DNA of 35,897 bases from an uncultured bacterium (GTDB taxonomy: Bacteria; Latescibacterota; UBA2968): contig CAYYGZ010000012.1 in assembly GCA_964471275.1 (NCBI GenBank), positions 1-35,897 of the forward strand, read 5' to 3'. The notes under the pieces are model-generated. The model ran no database searches, was not told the DNA's origin, and saw only the letters and a list, made by a program, of their open reading frames with translations. Made by a program: the position numbers and the translations under genes. The first letter of the stretch is position 1; each line of letters starts with the position of its first letter. Below are positions 1 to 6,564 of the stretch, in pieces.

Positions 1-131
1 TGGGCTCGGGCCGCGCCGTCATCGACACCATCTCCATTCTCGTCCACGAAGTCATCCTGCGCGCGGGCAAGCGTTGCGTCTGCCGCAACGACGGCAAAGG
101 CCAATGCTCCGACAGTCATCCACTTTCTCAT
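1..131 (-). CDS. 5' part of a secreted protein (signal peptide followed by acidic FVDENGDGVDD Ca-binding-like loop); runs off window edge
   Basis: Not in ORF track. Manual translation from ATG at 131: MRKWMTVGALAFAVVAADATLARA-QDDFVDENGDGVDDGAARA. GGAGGT RBS just upstream, basic N-region, hydrophobic core, A-x-A cleavage site. Confidence 0.8.
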   Translation of the reverse strand, partial: MRKWMTVGALAFAVVAADATLARAQDDFVDENGDGVDDGAARA

Positions 132-419: not shown

Positions 420-451
420 AAAGCCCCTGATCCAGGAGGATCAGGGGCTTT
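420..451 (-). terminator. Rho-independent terminator (possibly bidirectional)
   Basis: Perfect 14-bp inverted repeat AAAGCCCCTGATCC-AGGA-GGATCAGGGGCTTT; the hairpin ends in a short U-run on both strands. Confidence 0.8.
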
Positions 452-629
452 ATCAGCTGAGGCACTTCACAGACTTATCTAGGTAATATGCTGCAGTACG
501 CCCTATAGCAACGTGTAGAAGAGGCATCGAACAGGGTCACTTCATTTATCTTGGCCTCATCGAAGCAACACCAATCTGAACCATAGAGAATACCCATCAG
601 CTCGCACAAGGACCGCTCACGAAGTGATT

Positions 630-932
630 AAAGCCAGGCCCCGCGCCCAGCGGCGACTTTCTTCCCCGGTTATTTGGTCGGTCAAAGAACCGGGTCGGCG
701 CATCGGGCGCCGAAACCGGGGGCGGGGCGCCCGATCAGCCACACGAACAACCGACCCCCTGTTCAGATCTGCCAAATGCGTATCTCCGCCAAACGATCGC
801 ATCGGGTAGGGGATTGAAACCTACCAGGGATTCATCGAACAAGCTCGATCGAACCCCGAGCTATCTGTCGTGACCCCCTTAGGGCCAAGACAATCAACAC
901 CGGTTCTTGACCTGTGACTCAACCCAGCCTTC
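630..932 (-). ncRNA. Candidate highly structured ncRNA of unknown family
   Basis: Nested helices 680-693/900-912, 694-698/751-755, 702-711/726-735, 760-768/834-841, 776-780/798-802, 805-810/820-825, 842-847/857-862 and 866-877/881-892. Plus-strand A-C mismatches become G-U pairs on the minus strand. No credible ORF. Confidence 0.55.
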
Positions 933-1063
933 TGCATGAATGAACTCCATTGGCATTTCGAAAAATCGAAGGGCAATTGACGATCAGTAAACGAGAGACT
1001 GATCAGTCCGAAACCGTCCCGACCTGTTGCTCCGTCCTTGCCCCACATCCGCCGCCAGATCAA

Positions 1064-1789
1064 CTACGTCAGCAGACGCTCGCGACGCTCCATCTTCCTC
1101 AACCCCAGATACAGCAGCAGTGCACCGAAAACGAATACACCCACCCGGTTGAACAGAACCGTGTCCTCCCAGAGCGTCAGATCGGCGTTCGAAGGCACGT
1201 TGAACGGGTTGAGAAACGGATCGTACATCGTCCCGGAGAGTGATGACGAGAACATCAGGGCCAGCAGCAGGCACCCGAGTGACAGCATCCCGGCCGCATT
1301 GCTACTTCTAACGGACACGGCAAAATAGAACGTCAGATTGGCGATCAAATAGGCAGGTACGGCAGCATTCAATCCGCCGAGCACAAACGGAAACTCGGCA
1401 AAGAGAAAGTAGGACAGAGTGCTCATCGCCAGCGCCGACACCACGAGGATCCCGTGCAGGGACGTCAATCGGACCATCCAGATCGCATAGTGAGACGATG
1501 CCGTGCTGAACAGCGTCTCCAAAGTGTCGCGATCCCGCTCGGAGGCGATAATGTCCATGCTCAGGTAGACCGCCAGCGCGGCCATCGGAACCTGTACCAA
1601 GGTGTTCAGAGCAGCCTCGACGCTGAACCCGTCGCTTGGCCGGAACGTCAGGATCGCGTAGAGGATCGCGTAGTAGCCAGCCACACCGAGGACGCCGAAG
1701 GTCAGCTTCCGGTGAAACACGATCTTCAGGCTCAGCGTGACGATCTCGACACCGCTGCGCCACAGGTCTCTGTAAGTCAGGCCGCCCAC
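1064..1789 (-). CDS. ABC-2 type transporter permease (about 6 TM)
   Basis: Hydrophobic segments and IASERDRDTLETLFST (E-x3-TLE-L cytoplasmic coupling motif of ABC-2 permeases). Likely GTG start at 1789 with AAGGGG RBS, overlapping the upstream gene end. Confidence 0.8.
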   Translation of the reverse strand: MGGLTYRDLWRSGVEIVTLSLKIVFHRKLTFGVLGVAGYYAILYAILTFRPSDGFSVEAALNTLVQVPMAALAVYLSMDIIASERDRDTLETLFSTASSHYAIWMVRLTSLHGILVVSALAMSTLSYFLFAEFPFVLGGLNAAVPAYLIANLTFYFAVSVRSSNAAGMLSLGCLLLALMFSSSLSGTMYDPFLNPFNVPSNADLTLWEDTVLFNRVGVFVFGALLLYLGLRKMERRERLLT

Positions 1790-4700
1790 GCCAACCCCTT
1801 CCGCAGCAGGCAAACGTAGGCATCTTCGAGGTTCGGTGAAGGGGATGTGGCATCGAGTCCGTCCGGACACAACTCGGCGATGAATCGGGCCCGGATGCCG
1901 CCCGGGGATCGGACGTGTGTGATCAGATCAAGCGACGACTCACGGCGCTGGAACTCTTCCTCGGGAATGAGCGCTTCCCACACACGACCGTCGGCAACGG
2001 ATCGCATCGCTTCGGGAGCGCCATTATAGAGTACTTGCCCACGGTTCAGCACGGCAAGCTGGTTGCAGCTTCCCGAGATATCCTCAACGATATGTGTCGA
2101 GAACAGCACCACCCGGTCCTGGCTCAGCTTGGAGAGCAGGTTTCGGAACCGGATCCGCTCGATCGGATCCAGACCGGCAGTCGGCTCGTCGACCACGATG
2201 ATCTGGGGTTGATGAAGCAGCGTCTGCGCGATTCCGACACGTTGTCGCATCCCGCCGGAGAAGGTCCCGATCTGATCATCGATACGGTCCAGCAGGTTGA
2301 CCTCTTCCAGAATCTCGTGAACACGTCTTGACCGCGCGGTCTCTTCCCGAAACCCTTCCAACAGGGCTCGATAGGTCAGATACTGACCCGCACTCAGATG
2401 ATTGTAGAGCCCGAAATGCTGAGGCAGGTAACCGATTAGCCCATTTGTGGATCTCAGATCCGACACATTCTGACCGTTCACGAGTACCGATCCGTAGCTG
2501 GGTTCGAGAACCTGACAAAGAATCCGCATCATCGTCGTCTTGCCCGCTCCGTTCGGACCCAGCAGACCGAACATCCCCTTCTCGATAGAAAGAGTCACAC
2601 CGGCAAGTGCCTGAAACGGTTCGGCCTGCACACCGATCAAGGGAACGGATGCGGCCCCCTTATAGACACCTCTCCGAAGCCATCGCAATCGACCCGTAAT
2701 CGTCTCCGGATCCACCTGCCCCTCCCGCACACGATCGGCCAGCTTGCGTGCCCCGAGTACGGCCAGGAAAAGCACAACGGAAGCGATCGTCACAGACAGT
2801 GTCTTCACCCGAACGTGGGTTGTCACAAAGAACCCGATTGGAAGCAGCAGTCGCCAGATGCGCTCAATCCGCAAGACCCGGGCTGACCCCGAGAAGGAGA
2901 GGCCGATCAGACACGACCCCAGATGACGCAGATAGGCCCACGTCAGCGCAAAGAGGACGAACAGCCACAGCGGGTCTTCCAGGTATGCGTGAAAGAACAG
3001 GATCAGGAGAAGAAGAGGTATCTTCCACTGCAAACTCAGCTTTGTCGTAACGGGGTCTTCGAGTTCACCCTCCAGCAGCCCGCTTCTGTCTGTCCGCCTG
3101 TCGAAGCGCGCCCATTCCCTGCGGAGCCTTCCCGGTCCTCCGTAGATTTTCGTCAACGTGCGAAGTTCCAGTCGGTCTACCGATCCGATCACCACGGCGC
3201 TCGCTTGACGGCTTCGATGGACACGCAGCCCGGCCCACACGATCGTCAGAAACACCAGCCAGAAGGGCAGTGCCACGAGCCCGGTCCAGAACCAGCTCGC
3301 GTATCTGGCGTCGATCCAGTAGCAGGCGGCCGCGGTCATCCCCGTGGCGAGGAGGATACCGATCACGCCGATCTCGAGCAGCCAGGCTTTGGTGCGATCC
3401 AGCCCAACATATGCGACCGGGATGAACAGCAGCGTCGACAGCATCGAAATCGTCAGCCCACCCAGAACCGTTATCGCGAACGGTGGCCAGATTTCAAAAT
3501 CGCCGCCCATCTCGAGCGACAGGGGAAGAACACCCAGAAGCGTAGTTGCCGACGTCATCAGGATTGGCCGCACACGCGACCTGCCCGCGACCAGGACGGC
3601 CCGAGGTCTGCGGAATCCACGCTCTGCTCGAAGCGAACCGACCGAATCGATCAGGATGATCCCGTTGTTCACGGCGATGCCGAGCAGTACGACAAATCCG
3701 AGAAGCGCCATCGGCCCGGCCTGCGAGGTGAGACCCGTCCCCGTCATAATCAGGGCCCAGCACGAGCCGACGACCGCCGTCGGTATCGTACCGAACACGA
3801 TCAACGGGGCGCTGAGCGATTCGAACAGCGAAGCCAGGATCATATAGATGAGCAGCGCGGCAATTGCCATCATCCAGTAGTAAACCGTGTCCGTCTGGGC
3901 AGAAACCAGCTCCACGGTCACACCGGCCGGGATCACCATATCCTGAACAACCGACCGAACCGTAGCTCGCGCACCATCCAGCAGAACCTGCGATTCGGAG
4001 ACATCCGTAGTGAATCGATACTGAACGGAAATTCGACGCGATTGATCCGTCCTAACGATCGTACTGCGTCCTTCATTCGTCCGGACCCGTGCCAGCTCAT
4101 CGAGCGGCGTATACTGTCCACCCACTGTCCTGACAGGAACCTGGCGCAGACCGGCCAGACCCGGACCATCCGCCTCGGGGTCTTCGGTTGTCCGCAGATC
4201 GATCGGTGTTTCAGTGCCGTCGGGGTTCAGGAACGCGACCCGTGTCTGGAAGCCTTCTGGATTGGCCGCCTCAACCGCGTTCAGCACGTGTGTTGTTTCA
4301 AGCCGTCTGTCGAAGAGCGAGATCGCATCCGGGATGATCTCGACTTCGGGCGAGCTCCGTTCGACATCCGCGCGCACGCTGTTCGCGTCGATCTCCACCA
4401 TCTCCTCGAGCCGATAGGAGAGATCATCCGCGATCATTCGCAGAATCGTGAAGTCGTAACCACGAATCACCGCCTCCTCGGACGGTGCCCCGGTCTGCAG
4501 GCTGAACCCGCCGCCACCCCGTCCGCCGCGCCGCCCACCACCTCGACGCCCGCCGCCTCCCGTGATCGGAGCCTCGTAGGTCGCGACGCCTGCATTGAAA
4601 TCGTCCAGCTTCTCATCCAGCTTCGCTTTGATCTCCTCGAGCGACATCCCGTCCGGCCGTTCCCCGCGGTCCTTCAGCATCACGGTAACGCTTCCCAGCC

Positions 4701-6477
4701 CCTCATCGGCGCTCGCCGTAAACCGATTGACACCGGGAAGCTCCCTGACCATCGCCTCCACCTCTGTCACCGCCTCATCCGTGGCCTCGAGCGTGGTCCC
4801 CTCGGGAGTATCTACATAAACGGTGAACTGTGATTCTTCCTGAACGACCTGCTGCTGCAGCATGAAGAAGAAAGACAGGCTTAGCGTGACAAGAAAAACG
4901 AGACCGACACCGATCGAGAGACGGACCGGATGACGAAGACACGCCTTGAGCAGCAGGGTATACTGTTCGATCAATCGACCGGTTGCGAGGGGCGGTGGAG
5001 CGGCCGTGCTGAGTGTTCGGGACGCGAGTGCCGGTACGAGCAGCAGAGCCACAACCAGCGAGGCGAGAACGGGAAACGTGATCGAGAGGGCGAGCTCTGT
5101 CAGGATATCCTGAAAATCGCTCGTGATGAAGACTACGGGAAGGAAGACCACGACCGTCGTACCTGTGGCCGCCACTACGGCACGGCTCACATCTCGTGTA
5201 CCGGCTCTCGTAGCCTCTTCGGGAGACTTCCCCATCTCGAAATGCTTGAAGATGCTCTCCATCACGACAATGCTGTTATCCGCCAGCATCCCGATCGCAA
5301 GGGCAAGCCCACAGAGAGAGAGCACGTTTATCGATAGCCCGAAGGCGTAGAACAGGTTGAATGCCAGGAGAAGCGAGGTCGGAATCGCGAGCAACAGCAC
5401 GGCGACAAAACGGAGGGTGCGCAGAAACAGGAAGAGAACCACCAGACCCAGGAGGACACCCACCAGTGCGGCCTGCTTGAGCGTATTGAGGGCCTCGCCC
5501 ATCAGGTCGGCCTGACTGCTTGTCACGACGATCTCGATCCCGTCCGACGCGTAGACAGTGTTGAGTCGAGTGACTGCCTCTTCTATCCCTGCGGCAACAT
5601 CCAGCAGGTTCGCTTCGTCTTCCTTCTGAATCTGAACGGCAACCGAAGCCTTCCCGTTCACGCGACTGACATCCGTCCGCCGCTGAACGCCTGGGTAGAC
5701 ACGGGCCACATCGCCGATCGTCAGCGGGATCTCCGGCTTCAGGACAACGTCTCGGATTCCCGCGATGTCGGTGAATTGCGTCTGAACGCTCACGGGAAGG
5801 ACACGCGATCCGTCATAGATCATCCCGAGCGAAGCGCGCGGCCGATTGTAGCTCGAAAGCCGACCGTTGATGTCATTGAGCGTAAGTTCGTGCGCCTCCA
5901 TCACGATCGGATCCGCGATGATGGCGACGGACTTCTGTCTGCCGCCTTGCACACCCGCGTTCACCACACCGTCGACAGCCTCCAGCTCCGGGCGGATCTC
6001 GTTCTCGGCGAAATTCCGCAGCCAGTCAAGATCGGCTTCACCCAGGACCTGGAGCATCATAACGCGGGAACTGATGTCGGAAGTATCGAAACGCTGAACG
6101 ATGATGTTCGTGCGGGGGGGAAAGAGCGGCTGCAGCCGTGAGACACGCGACTGGATCTGAAGAAGCGCGAACTTCATGTCTGTATCCGGTGCATAGGACA
6201 CGCGGATCGTCGCGCGGTTGGCCATCGACGTGGAGGTCATCTCGACCACACCGTCGAGCTTCCCGATCTCACCTTCGATCGGAATAACGAGGTCCCGCTC
6301 GACCTGCTCCGGACTCGTACCTCGAAGCTGAACAGCCACAAAAACCTCCGGATAGATCACCTCCGGAAGCAGCTCGACCGGCAGTCGGTCGACCGAGATC
6401 AGCCCCAGCAAACTGAGCGCCGCGAACAGCATCGCCATCGTTACCGGCCGCTTTATGGGGAGATCCGATATACGCAC
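1777..6477 (-). CDS. RND efflux permease (AcrB/AcrD/AcrF family) fused to C-terminal ABC ATPase domain, about 1566 aa
   Basis: RND motifs IKRPV, LPVELLP, GMLADNSIVV, GIAVNNGIIL and RVRPILMT, then Walker A GPNGAGKTT, Q-loop GYLPQ, signature FSGGMRQR, Walker B IIVVDEP and H-loop STH in one uninterrupted frame. GTG start at 6477 after GGAG. Confidence 0.92.
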   Translation of the reverse strand: MRISDLPIKRPVTMAMLFAALSLLGLISVDRLPVELLPEVIYPEVFVAVQLRGTSPEQVERDLVIPIEGEIGKLDGVVEMTSTSMANRATIRVSYAPDTDMKFALLQIQSRVSRLQPLFPPRTNIIVQRFDTSDISSRVMMLQVLGEADLDWLRNFAENEIRPELEAVDGVVNAGVQGGRQKSVAIIADPIVMEAHELTLNDINGRLSSYNRPRASLGMIYDGSRVLPVSVQTQFTDIAGIRDVVLKPEIPLTIGDVARVYPGVQRRTDVSRVNGKASVAVQIQKEDEANLLDVAAGIEEAVTRLNTVYASDGIEIVVTSSQADLMGEALNTLKQAALVGVLLGLVVLFLFLRTLRFVAVLLLAIPTSLLLAFNLFYAFGLSINVLSLCGLALAIGMLADNSIVVMESIFKHFEMGKSPEEATRAGTRDVSRAVVAATGTTVVVFLPVVFITSDFQDILTELALSITFPVLASLVVALLLVPALASRTLSTAAPPPLATGRLIEQYTLLLKACLRHPVRLSIGVGLVFLVTLSLSFFFMLQQQVVQEESQFTVYVDTPEGTTLEATDEAVTEVEAMVRELPGVNRFTASADEGLGSVTVMLKDRGERPDGMSLEEIKAKLDEKLDDFNAGVATYEAPITGGGGRRGGGRRGGRGGGGFSLQTGAPSEEAVIRGYDFTILRMIADDLSYRLEEMVEIDANSVRADVERSSPEVEIIPDAISLFDRRLETTHVLNAVEAANPEGFQTRVAFLNPDGTETPIDLRTTEDPEADGPGLAGLRQVPVRTVGGQYTPLDELARVRTNEGRSTIVRTDQSRRISVQYRFTTDVSESQVLLDGARATVRSVVQDMVIPAGVTVELVSAQTDTVYYWMMAIAALLIYMILASLFESLSAPLIVFGTIPTAVVGSCWALIMTGTGLTSQAGPMALLGFVVLLGIAVNNGIILIDSVGSLRAERGFRRPRAVLVAGRSRVRPILMTSATTLLGVLPLSLEMGGDFEIWPPFAITVLGGLTISMLSTLLFIPVAYVGLDRTKAWLLEIGVIGILLATGMTAAACYWIDARYASWFWTGLVALPFWLVFLTIVWAGLRVHRSRQASAVVIGSVDRLELRTLTKIYGGPGRLRREWARFDRRTDRSGLLEGELEDPVTTKLSLQWKIPLLLLILFFHAYLEDPLWLFVLFALTWAYLRHLGSCLIGLSFSGSARVLRIERIWRLLLPIGFFVTTHVRVKTLSVTIASVVLFLAVLGARKLADRVREGQVDPETITGRLRWLRRGVYKGAASVPLIGVQAEPFQALAGVTLSIEKGMFGLLGPNGAGKTTMMRILCQVLEPSYGSVLVNGQNVSDLRSTNGLIGYLPQHFGLYNHLSAGQYLTYRALLEGFREETARSRRVHEILEEVNLLDRIDDQIGTFSGGMRQRVGIAQTLLHQPQIIVVDEPTAGLDPIERIRFRNLLSKLSQDRVVLFSTHIVEDISGSCNQLAVLNRGQVLYNGAPEAMRSVADGRVWEALIPEEEFQRRESSLDLITHVRSPGGIRARFIAELCPDGLDATSPSPNLEDAYVCLLRKGLAWAA

Positions 6478-6564
6478 TGATCCACTCCGTATACTTTTCC
6501 GCAGGCTGGAACGCCGCAAATTGGGGCACCGCAGGTTGGGACGCCACAGGCCGGAAGCCTGCGC

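Follow-up and report, generated by a model that had tools for sequence, protein, structure and literature searches.

A contig of 35,897 nucleotides (nt) from an uncultured bacterium of the phylum Latescibacterota (GTDB lineage UBA2968; assembly GCA_964471275.1, contig CAYYGZ010000012.1; genome G000 below), hereafter the window, contains at positions 517-732 of its plus strand a copy of a dispersed repeat, and it is on balance likely that this copy acts as a module of folded single-stranded RNA whose production does not depend on the genes beside it. The repeat is a lineage-restricted, multi-copy element of few Latescibacterota genera and has no entry in Rfam. Comparison of its copies shows that compensatory changes keep at least three predicted helices, namely P1, P6 and the position of P7, and the fold under selection appears, from a modest but consistent bias in wobble pairs, to be that of the plus strand, opposite to the exporter operon at whose 3' end the copy lies. 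A preliminary description of the window had flagged the overlapping interval 630-932 as a single structured minus-strand RNA possibly tied to that exporter. The repeat has no link to the exporter, and the right-hand part of the flagged interval, 733-932, is unconserved filler without a sign of a conserved RNA. That the repeat may act at the RNA level is our best guess.

Identification and distribution of the repeat

With positions 452-1063 as the query, five places were identified in G000, including the window itself; the coverage and identity of the other four copies (C21, C62, C8 and C212) are given in Table 1. The genes beside the own-genome copies encode ordinary enzymes (mandelate-racemase-like protein, aminotransferase, methyltransferase, HD-domain protein and dehydrogenases), with no transposase among them. 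Matches were present in 18 of 41 related genomes (G000 counted), including all 13 of genus g7 and none of the 15 of genus g4. Genus g7 represents another family of the same order and consists mostly of sponge-associated Latescibacterota. When 168 genomes of the phylum were scanned with a 17-letter core pattern, all 15 g7 genomes contained it, with 3-55 matches per genome, and four and six matches were found in G000 and G006, respectively; elsewhere in these genomes the matches stayed at the level of a reversed-pattern control. An exact-pattern scan with one genome per species matched at least 125 stretches, and among the matches listed were metagenome-assembled genomes of Latescibacterota and sponge-derived bins labelled Gemmatimonadota. 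The matches in Caldilineaceae (L039/L141) and Actinomycetes (L047) were rejected as chance, being inside unrelated sequence and without the family hairpin, as were seven matches on viral contigs, which also lay in unrelated sequence and had the family hairpin in none of the seven cases.

The family was defined from copies in genera g1, g5, g6 and g7, and its diagnostic hairpin of 10-13 pairs with a GUCG-type loop stands directly 3' of the core after a U-rich linker. The window agrees in each of these features, with an exact match to the family core motif CCGCGCCNAGCGGCG(A/C)C at 641-657, the linker and hairpin at 658-694, a second hairpin at 695-713 and several intergenic copies in its genome. 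A profile built from 84 g7 copies, none of them from the window, matched 631-689 on the plus strand (E = 8e-9), with no other match below E = 1 in the rest of the window. The unit is about 217 nt long in the window and about 270 nt in g7. Its parts differ in conservation, the mean identity among copies (14 pairs) being 0.96 in the 3' module, 0.80 in the inner 5' domain and 0.71 in the leader.

No match to Rfam 15 was obtained at gathering thresholds in the whole window. Below threshold (E <=10), the region 350-1150 gave only noise and, at 408-460, terminator look-alikes from unrelated small RNAs, and nine related loci gave no match at E <=0.1. The earlier reading, which had recognised no known RNA family in the interval, is borne out in this respect. 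Searches of the literature on Latescibacterota non-coding RNAs and repeats, and for the core sequence as a string, found no description of the repeat family.

Conserved fold and its strand

The conserved module at the 3' end of the unit, about 95 nt long, is composed of the invariant core (637-657), the hairpin at 665-694 and the second hairpin at 695-713. Upstream of it, the closing helix P1, which was read from the sequence and from the alignment of own-genome copies, encloses an inner domain that differs between subfamilies. In the 84 g7 copies, the equivalent of P1 includes three pairs with changes on both sides. Hairpin P6 belongs to the minimum-energy fold of all 14 subfamily representatives, with arms of differing sequence. 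In g7, a single pair around CGCCG stands in place of P7, and all 84 copies have it as a Watson-Crick pair, with every pair type represented (AU 53, CG 17, UA 12, GC 2). The covariation score of the whole structure in the same copies is 0.083 compared with 0.032 in shuffles, a value reached by none of 500, and sliding the partner columns by one to three positions lowers the pairing from 99.5% to 30-50%. The preliminary description was thus right that the flagged interval holds a structured element, in that it holds part of one, kept by compensatory changes and possibly pseudoknotted.

Two further pairings possibly exist as well. The short helix within the core is invariant in the 84 g7 copies, and hence carries no covariation information there, and its loop varies in size between subfamilies. 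The candidate pseudoknot between the end of the core and the loop of P6 is likewise invariant within g7, and in two G002 copies its pairing is down to three pairs. An alternative long-range helix, which would exclude the core helix, is represented in other copies only by a CCCC/GGGG remnant and is missing from g5 and g6. In some g7 copies, a conserved insert of about 200 nt replaces P6 (L109:947-1120; also L121, L132, L154 and L158). The two ends of this insert can pair with each other, so that it may be an enlarged stem domain or else an element nested within the copy.

For the variable 5' domain, a column-wise covariation scan of the MAFFT alignment was dominated by G/U-rich tracts and was therefore unusable, and single-sequence folds disagreed with one another, so no consensus is given. 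No covariance model was built, as MAFFT also misaligned the arms of the hairpins between subfamilies.

Wobble pairs point to the plus strand as the one that folds. Counted over five helices in the 84 g7 copies, G-U cells, whose pairing is limited to the plus strand, number 10, and A-C cells, whose pairing is limited to the minus strand, number three; in P1 alone, the single-sided changes comprise nine G-U or U-G cells and two A-C cells. Plus-strand G-U pairs can also be read in the other genera: P1 has them in the window, C21 and C62, P6 has them in copies of g5 and g6, and three copies show them in P7.

Table 1. Features of the repeat copy, its relatives in the same genome and its surroundings (positions in the window)
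Feature	Position	Strand	Remarks
Dispersed structured repeat copy	517..732	+	Similarity to other own-genome copies; five places in G000 including the window
Own-genome copy C21	517-725 covered		82% identity
Own-genome copy C62	616-728 covered		78% identity
Own-genome copy C8	593-687 covered		69% identity
Own-genome copy C212	698-729 covered		91% identity
Closing helix P1	535-543 with 621-629	+	9 pairs, two of them G-U; encloses variable inner domain (535..629)
Near-invariant core GGCCCCGCGCCCAGCGGCGAC	637..657	+	Can form 4-pair helix 641-644/650-653
U-rich linker	3' of core, before P6	+	Sequence
Hairpin P6	665-676 with 683-694	+	11 pairs, one A-G mismatch; loop GUCGGU
Possible pseudoknot	CGAC 654-657 with loop GUCG 677-680	+	Putative; read from sequences
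Hairpin P7	695-701 with 707-713	+	In the minimum-energy fold of 5/7 copies of the window's genus
G-rich tail	3' of P7	+	Sequence
Alternative long-range helix	638-648 with 718-728	+	10/11 pairs; excludes helix 641-644/650-653
Unique spacer, terminator hairpin to repeat copy	452..516	.	Similarity to copies begins at 517; missing in syntenic relatives
Unique sequence, repeat copy to permease stop codon	733..1063	.	No matches; right two-thirds of flagged interval
Intrinsic-terminator-like hairpin and T run	420..451 (hairpin 424-451)	-	Equivalent follows the exporter's last gene in relatives
Last gene of exporter cluster (268-aa membrane protein/permease)	1064..1870	-	Context; no Pfam match

The insertion at the end of the exporter operon

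The surroundings of the window copy differ from those in related exporter loci. In G002, of the same genus, the orthologous permease (74% identity) is followed after its stop codon by 12 nt and the terminator hairpin, and then by a conserved TGTAAC-repeat region and the next gene. Three metagenome loci (L206, L207 and L208; permeases 74-79% identical) have the same layout, with a gap between stop codon and terminator within 12-45 nt; L207 and G002, two of these four syntenic relatives, are nearly identical. The extra 612 nt (452-1063) are present only in the own-species locus L205, the permease of which is 100% identical, and the core motif is found in none of 20 other related exporter loci. 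Positions 452-1063 are therefore a species-specific insertion into the 3' untranslated region (UTR) of the operon, and only 517-732 of it is the repeat. The terminator named at 420-451 in the preliminary description corresponds to an intrinsic-terminator-like hairpin with a T run at 424-451, which scores on the minus strand. The repeat hairpins P6 and P7 are no intrinsic terminators, as no U run follows either on either strand.

No relative of 733-932, or of the longer 733-1063, was found in the own genome or in the 20 related exporter loci, and none of 733-940 in the 40 related genomes. The segment 733-1063 folds no better than shuffles (z = -0.66 on the plus and -0.87 on the minus strand). 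A degenerate second copy of the repeat in 733-1063 was considered and rejected, as inverted or direct similarity never went beyond matches of 9-21 nt, a size expected by chance. A coding reading of the interval was also rejected: for the open reading frames (ORFs) 821-1063(-), 617-802(-), 624-809(+), 475-609(-) and 674-817(+), Pfam gave no match at E <=0.1, and the translations of 821-1063(-) and 624-809(+) look random. The first of these frames continues that of the permease for 80 codons past its TAG stop; the relatives end at the same residue, and the extension looks like chance.

All pairing segments named in the preliminary description are present in the sequence, though one minus-strand RNA built from them is not supported. 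Its closing stem, 680-693 GGTCAAAGAACCGG with 900-912 CCGGTTCTTGACC, has 13 Watson-Crick pairs with one bulged A and a perfect 9-nt seed, and in 4 of 300 dinucleotide shuffles of 630-932 a stem appeared with 13 or more pairs and no more than one bulge. The stem would nevertheless compete with the conserved P6, because 680-693 comprises the loop end and 3' arm of that hairpin, and its right arm lies in unconserved DNA. Of the two proposed pseudoknots, GGCGG at 721-725 is complementary to CCGCC at 786-790, and 827-833 pairs with 851-857 on the minus strand with one G-U, the latter forming an ordinary hairpin in the minus-strand minimum-energy fold. Both pseudoknots, like the closing stem, have at least one arm in unconserved DNA. 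The folding energy of 630-932 is modestly better than that of shuffled controls on both strands (z = -2.27 with 2 of 100 shuffles as good on the minus strand; z = -1.94 with 3 of 100 on the plus strand), so that the self-complementarity of the interval is above chance and modestly unusual, although not compelling. Many dispersed genomic copies, which the preliminary description had itself named as grounds against its model, exist for 630-729, and none matches 733-932. The extent, the strand, the helix set and the exporter link of the earlier model are thus all unsupported.

Several side observations concern the same locus. TGTAAC motifs are repeated at 215-262 and 372-398, in the stretch that separates the terminator from the next gene (3-131, minus strand), and L206, L207, L208 and G002 share a conserved block CTGACTC-GTTACAGTCG-TTTACAA in the corresponding position. 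The region is probably the operator or promoter region of gene 3-131, whose 43 residues in view resemble, by eye, a signal peptide. The sequence of the terminator hairpin (419-451) recurs with two differences in an otherwise unrelated marine metagenome contig of 2.7 kb (X8), and this hairpin may be a small repeat itself. On the other side of the insertion, the minus-strand frame 1777-6519 encodes a single protein of 1580 residues with a full AcrB-type resistance-nodulation-division (RND) permease (residues 18-1039) and an ATP-binding cassette (ABC) ATPase domain (residues 1307-1448). Of 14 related metagenome loci, 7 have a frame upstream of the small permease that runs on for 650 codons or more, as far as the edge of the locus, and a fused RND-ABC protein may be conserved.

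Genomic context of the copies

The orientation of the repeat relative to its neighbours is free. Among 19 g7 copies, the downstream gene (identified by Pfam) is co-directional in ten cases and convergent in six, and the upstream gene is co-directional in seven and divergent in seven; in G000, the window copy is antisense to both neighbours and the C21 copy is in sense. Since these orientations are mixed, a role tied to orientation, such as leader, riboswitch or terminator, is unlikely, and a cis-regulatory leader or riboswitch was rejected as a candidate for want of a constant orientation (10 versus 6 of 16) and in view of the antisense position of the window copy. In g7, the repeat has two homologous forms, A and B, which often adjoin head to head or tail to tail and are assembled into arrays. 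Other small repeats accompany the g7 copies: the heptamer GCTGAYR stands in runs to either side, and there are a 71-nt tandem hairpin and palindromes headed by GTAG that resemble REP (repetitive extragenic palindromic) sequences. The g7 genomes also contain gene-poor stretches of several kilobases packed with repeats, and an array of the 71-nt unit is built on a CTCCCCCTCTCC...GGAGAGGGGG hairpin (L197:5773-6127, G039).

The genes of Y1/RAYT and TnpB proteins and of IS110 do not track the repeat. No transposase family was detected at the curated cut-off among the 134 ORFs flanking the 19 g7 copies. Y1_Tnp (PF01797) is missing from G000, G027, G030 and four other g7 genomes; it is present in 6 of 13 genomes of g7 and in 9 of 15 of g4. 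TnpB (PF07282) has no match in G000 and occurs in 2 of 13 g7 genomes and in 14 of 15 genomes of the repeat-free g4. IS110 (PF01548) is represented in G000 by one broken fragment on another contig, and otherwise in 4 of 13 g7 and 5 of 15 g4 genomes. The complete genomes G027 and G030, with 25 and 10 copies of the repeat, respectively, have no Y1 or IS110 match and a single TnpB match (E = 6.5e-4).

Possible role and origin of the repeat

In the most plausible scenario, the repeat is an interspersed element of some age, and selection acts on its single-stranded fold on one of the two strands. The repeat would be an RNA module transcribed independently of its neighbours, each copy presumably from a promoter of its own; the near-invariant 3' module would offer a binding platform for a partner, and the variable 5' domain would serve as the scaffold. 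The selected molecule would be RNA rather than single-stranded DNA. This reading is suggested by the strand bias, by the lack of a partner transposase for single-stranded DNA in complete genomes with 10-25 copies, by the free orientation relative to neighbours and by the positions in G027 and G030, where no obvious replichore pattern was seen by eye.

A number of observations weigh against an RNA-level role. A search of RNA runs for positions 300-1300 listed none containing them, a result without bearing on expression; no sigma-70-like promoter was found in 1-1300, and no conserved promoter motif was seen upstream of the g7 copies. The stability of the plus-strand fold of 455-735 does not exceed that of shuffles (z = 0.14), and for this reason the case for structure rests on comparison of copies and not on energy. 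The bias in wobble pairs is modest, and in C8, a copy from the own genome, P1 contains a C-A. The core helix shows one compensatory difference, in a type B copy with CUGC/GCAG, and the candidate pseudoknot one compensatory event, CGAC/GUCG in type A and CGCC/GGCG in type B, so that each depends on a single change. In a test aimed at selection at individual sites, similarity of the flanks chose mostly other repeats, and L033/L102 was the only clearly orthologous pair, so such selection is not demonstrated. Furthermore, compensatory changes and a conserved module would also be expected from a selfish element that depends on its fold for transposition, or from gene conversion.

It is possible, if rather unlikely, that the repeat is such a selfish element: a non-autonomous one akin to miniature inverted-repeat transposable elements (MITEs) or REPINs, moving as single-stranded DNA, with its fold and module recognised by a transposase acting in trans and with no function for the host. 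Much in the distribution of the copies would suit this alternative, as they vary in number within one genus, lie in both orientations, form arrays of two unit types in alternating orientation and are found at contig ends. Presence and absence between species would also suit it, both for the window copy relative to the four syntenic relatives and for an A and B pair of G027, whose locus measures 830 nt compared with 208 nt in G033, where the intergenic DNA cannot be aligned. Neither comparison gave a clean empty site for the repeat alone. Against a selfish element, no terminal inverted repeats or target-site duplications were seen at the boundaries of the window and C21 copies, and the candidate transposases do not co-occur with the repeat, including in the two complete genomes. 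Nor are there, by eye, long same-strand runs on the G027 and G030 chromosomes, as would be expected from transposition dependent on the lagging strand. Contigs of four marine DNA runs contained no empty-site allele; they cover the locus piecewise, without a joint skipping the insertion, and have no bearing on mobility.

A more specific form of the RNA reading, which we regard as speculative and doubtful, is that the copies make up a previously undescribed class of multi-copy RNAs, each transcribed independently, whose pseudoknotted 3' module docks a protein and whose 5' domains give specificity, and that these RNAs belong to an uncharacterised RNA-protein system of Latescibacterota that expanded in sponge symbionts.

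It is improbable that the copies are scaffold or guide-like RNAs acting in trans on an effector protein, the 3' module being the handle for the protein and the variable 5' domain conferring specificity. An invariant module beside a domain that varies yet keeps its structure, dozens of diverged copies per genome, free orientation and the replacement of one hairpin by the 200-nt insert in some copies are what such RNAs might show. However, no linked protein gene was seen near the 19 copies, TnpB and IS110 are not associated with the repeat, there is no Rfam match and hence none to the HEARO/IscB RNA family, and the helix that closes the variable domain would leave no free guide.

Slightly more improbable still is an action in cis of the 612-nt insertion as a structured minus-strand 3' UTR of the exporter mRNA, offering protection from exonucleases or processing sites. 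Structured 3' UTR repeats are known to stabilise mRNAs in enterobacteria, the insertion lies between stop codon and terminator, and the Watson-Crick helices of the repeat would also form in the reverse complement. The conservation of the insertion is, however, restricted to this species, the other copies stand in other contexts and orientations, and on the minus strand P1 would have C-A mismatches in place of its two G-U pairs. Finally, one large, doubly pseudoknotted minus-strand RNA at 630-932 that serves the RND-ABC exporter is the least probable of all, as, despite its genuine complementarities, its rarely matched stem, the minus-strand folding energy and the sure transcription of that strand should the operon read through to the terminator, its left third (630-729) is part of a repeat with copies beside unrelated genes, the rest has no relative among the sequences searched, the wobble pairs favour the other strand, and its absence from homologous operons refutes it in practice.

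Comparison with known repeat and RNA families

The repeat belongs among bacterial structured interspersed repeats, and among its analogues are the REP sequences, bacterial interspersed mosaic elements (BIMEs) and REPINs. In Proteobacteria, these are accompanied by RAYT transposases and are single palindromes of about 35-40 nt (a unit of 20-40 nt with a GTAG-type head). Like them, the Latescibacterota repeat is multi-copy, intergenic and able to fold as a single strand, and its copy number varies widely between related species; the A and B units of g7 with their alternating orientation, characteristic spacers, mosaics and arrays also recall BIMEs. In contrast, its units of about 200-280 nt are about six times larger, with several helices and a possible pseudoknot, no Y1/RAYT gene co-occurs (none in G000, G027 and G030), and separate GTAG-headed palindromes resembling true REPs adjoin some copies.

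BOX of Streptococcus pneumoniae and ERIC/IRU of enterobacteria are modular intergenic repeats of about 100-300 nt that are thought to fold as RNA when transcribed. They share with the present repeat the lack of a transposase of their own and the occurrence in either orientation relative to genes. There is no sequence relation between them, and the present repeat differs in combining its near-invariant module with interchangeable 5' domains and in being confined to few Latescibacterota genera. The Correia/NEMIS elements and the bcr1 MITE are similarly non-coding and dispersed, with insertion polymorphism between relatives, whereas the present repeat shows no MITE-like terminal inverted repeats or target-site duplications at the boundaries examined, and its 5' part diverges while the 3' module remains about 96% identical.

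OMEGA RNAs (HEARO/IscB and the omega-RNA of TnpB) and the bridge RNA of IS110 are structured, 150-300 nt long, contain pseudoknots and can occur in many copies, some of them without a protein gene. The likeness lies in a folded unit of this size, in multiple copies and in a possible pseudoknot. The differences are the lack of an Rfam match (E <=10 in the window region and E <=0.1 at the nine loci), a TnpB distribution that runs opposite to that of the repeat (14 of 15 in the repeat-free g4 as against 2 of 13 in g7), and the presence of IS110 in 4 of 13 g7 genomes, with no gene of either kind beside the 19 copies. Membership in the TnpB omega-RNAs is not indicated, as TnpB does not co-occur with the repeat; no search aimed at IscB was made.

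Implications

For the window itself the result is mainly corrective: what had been flagged as an exporter-linked ribozyme or riboswitch is a repeat copy together with unconserved filler, both within a species-specific insertion. For the family, the repeat keeps several of its predicted helices by compensatory changes across two bacterial families, and it bears the signature of a single-stranded molecule without a recognisable transposase partner. Should the repeat prove to be selfish DNA, it would be an unusually complex analogue of the REP and BIME elements. Should it be transcribed, a large family of structured RNAs would be gained for a phylum that has no cultured model and almost no known non-coding RNAs.

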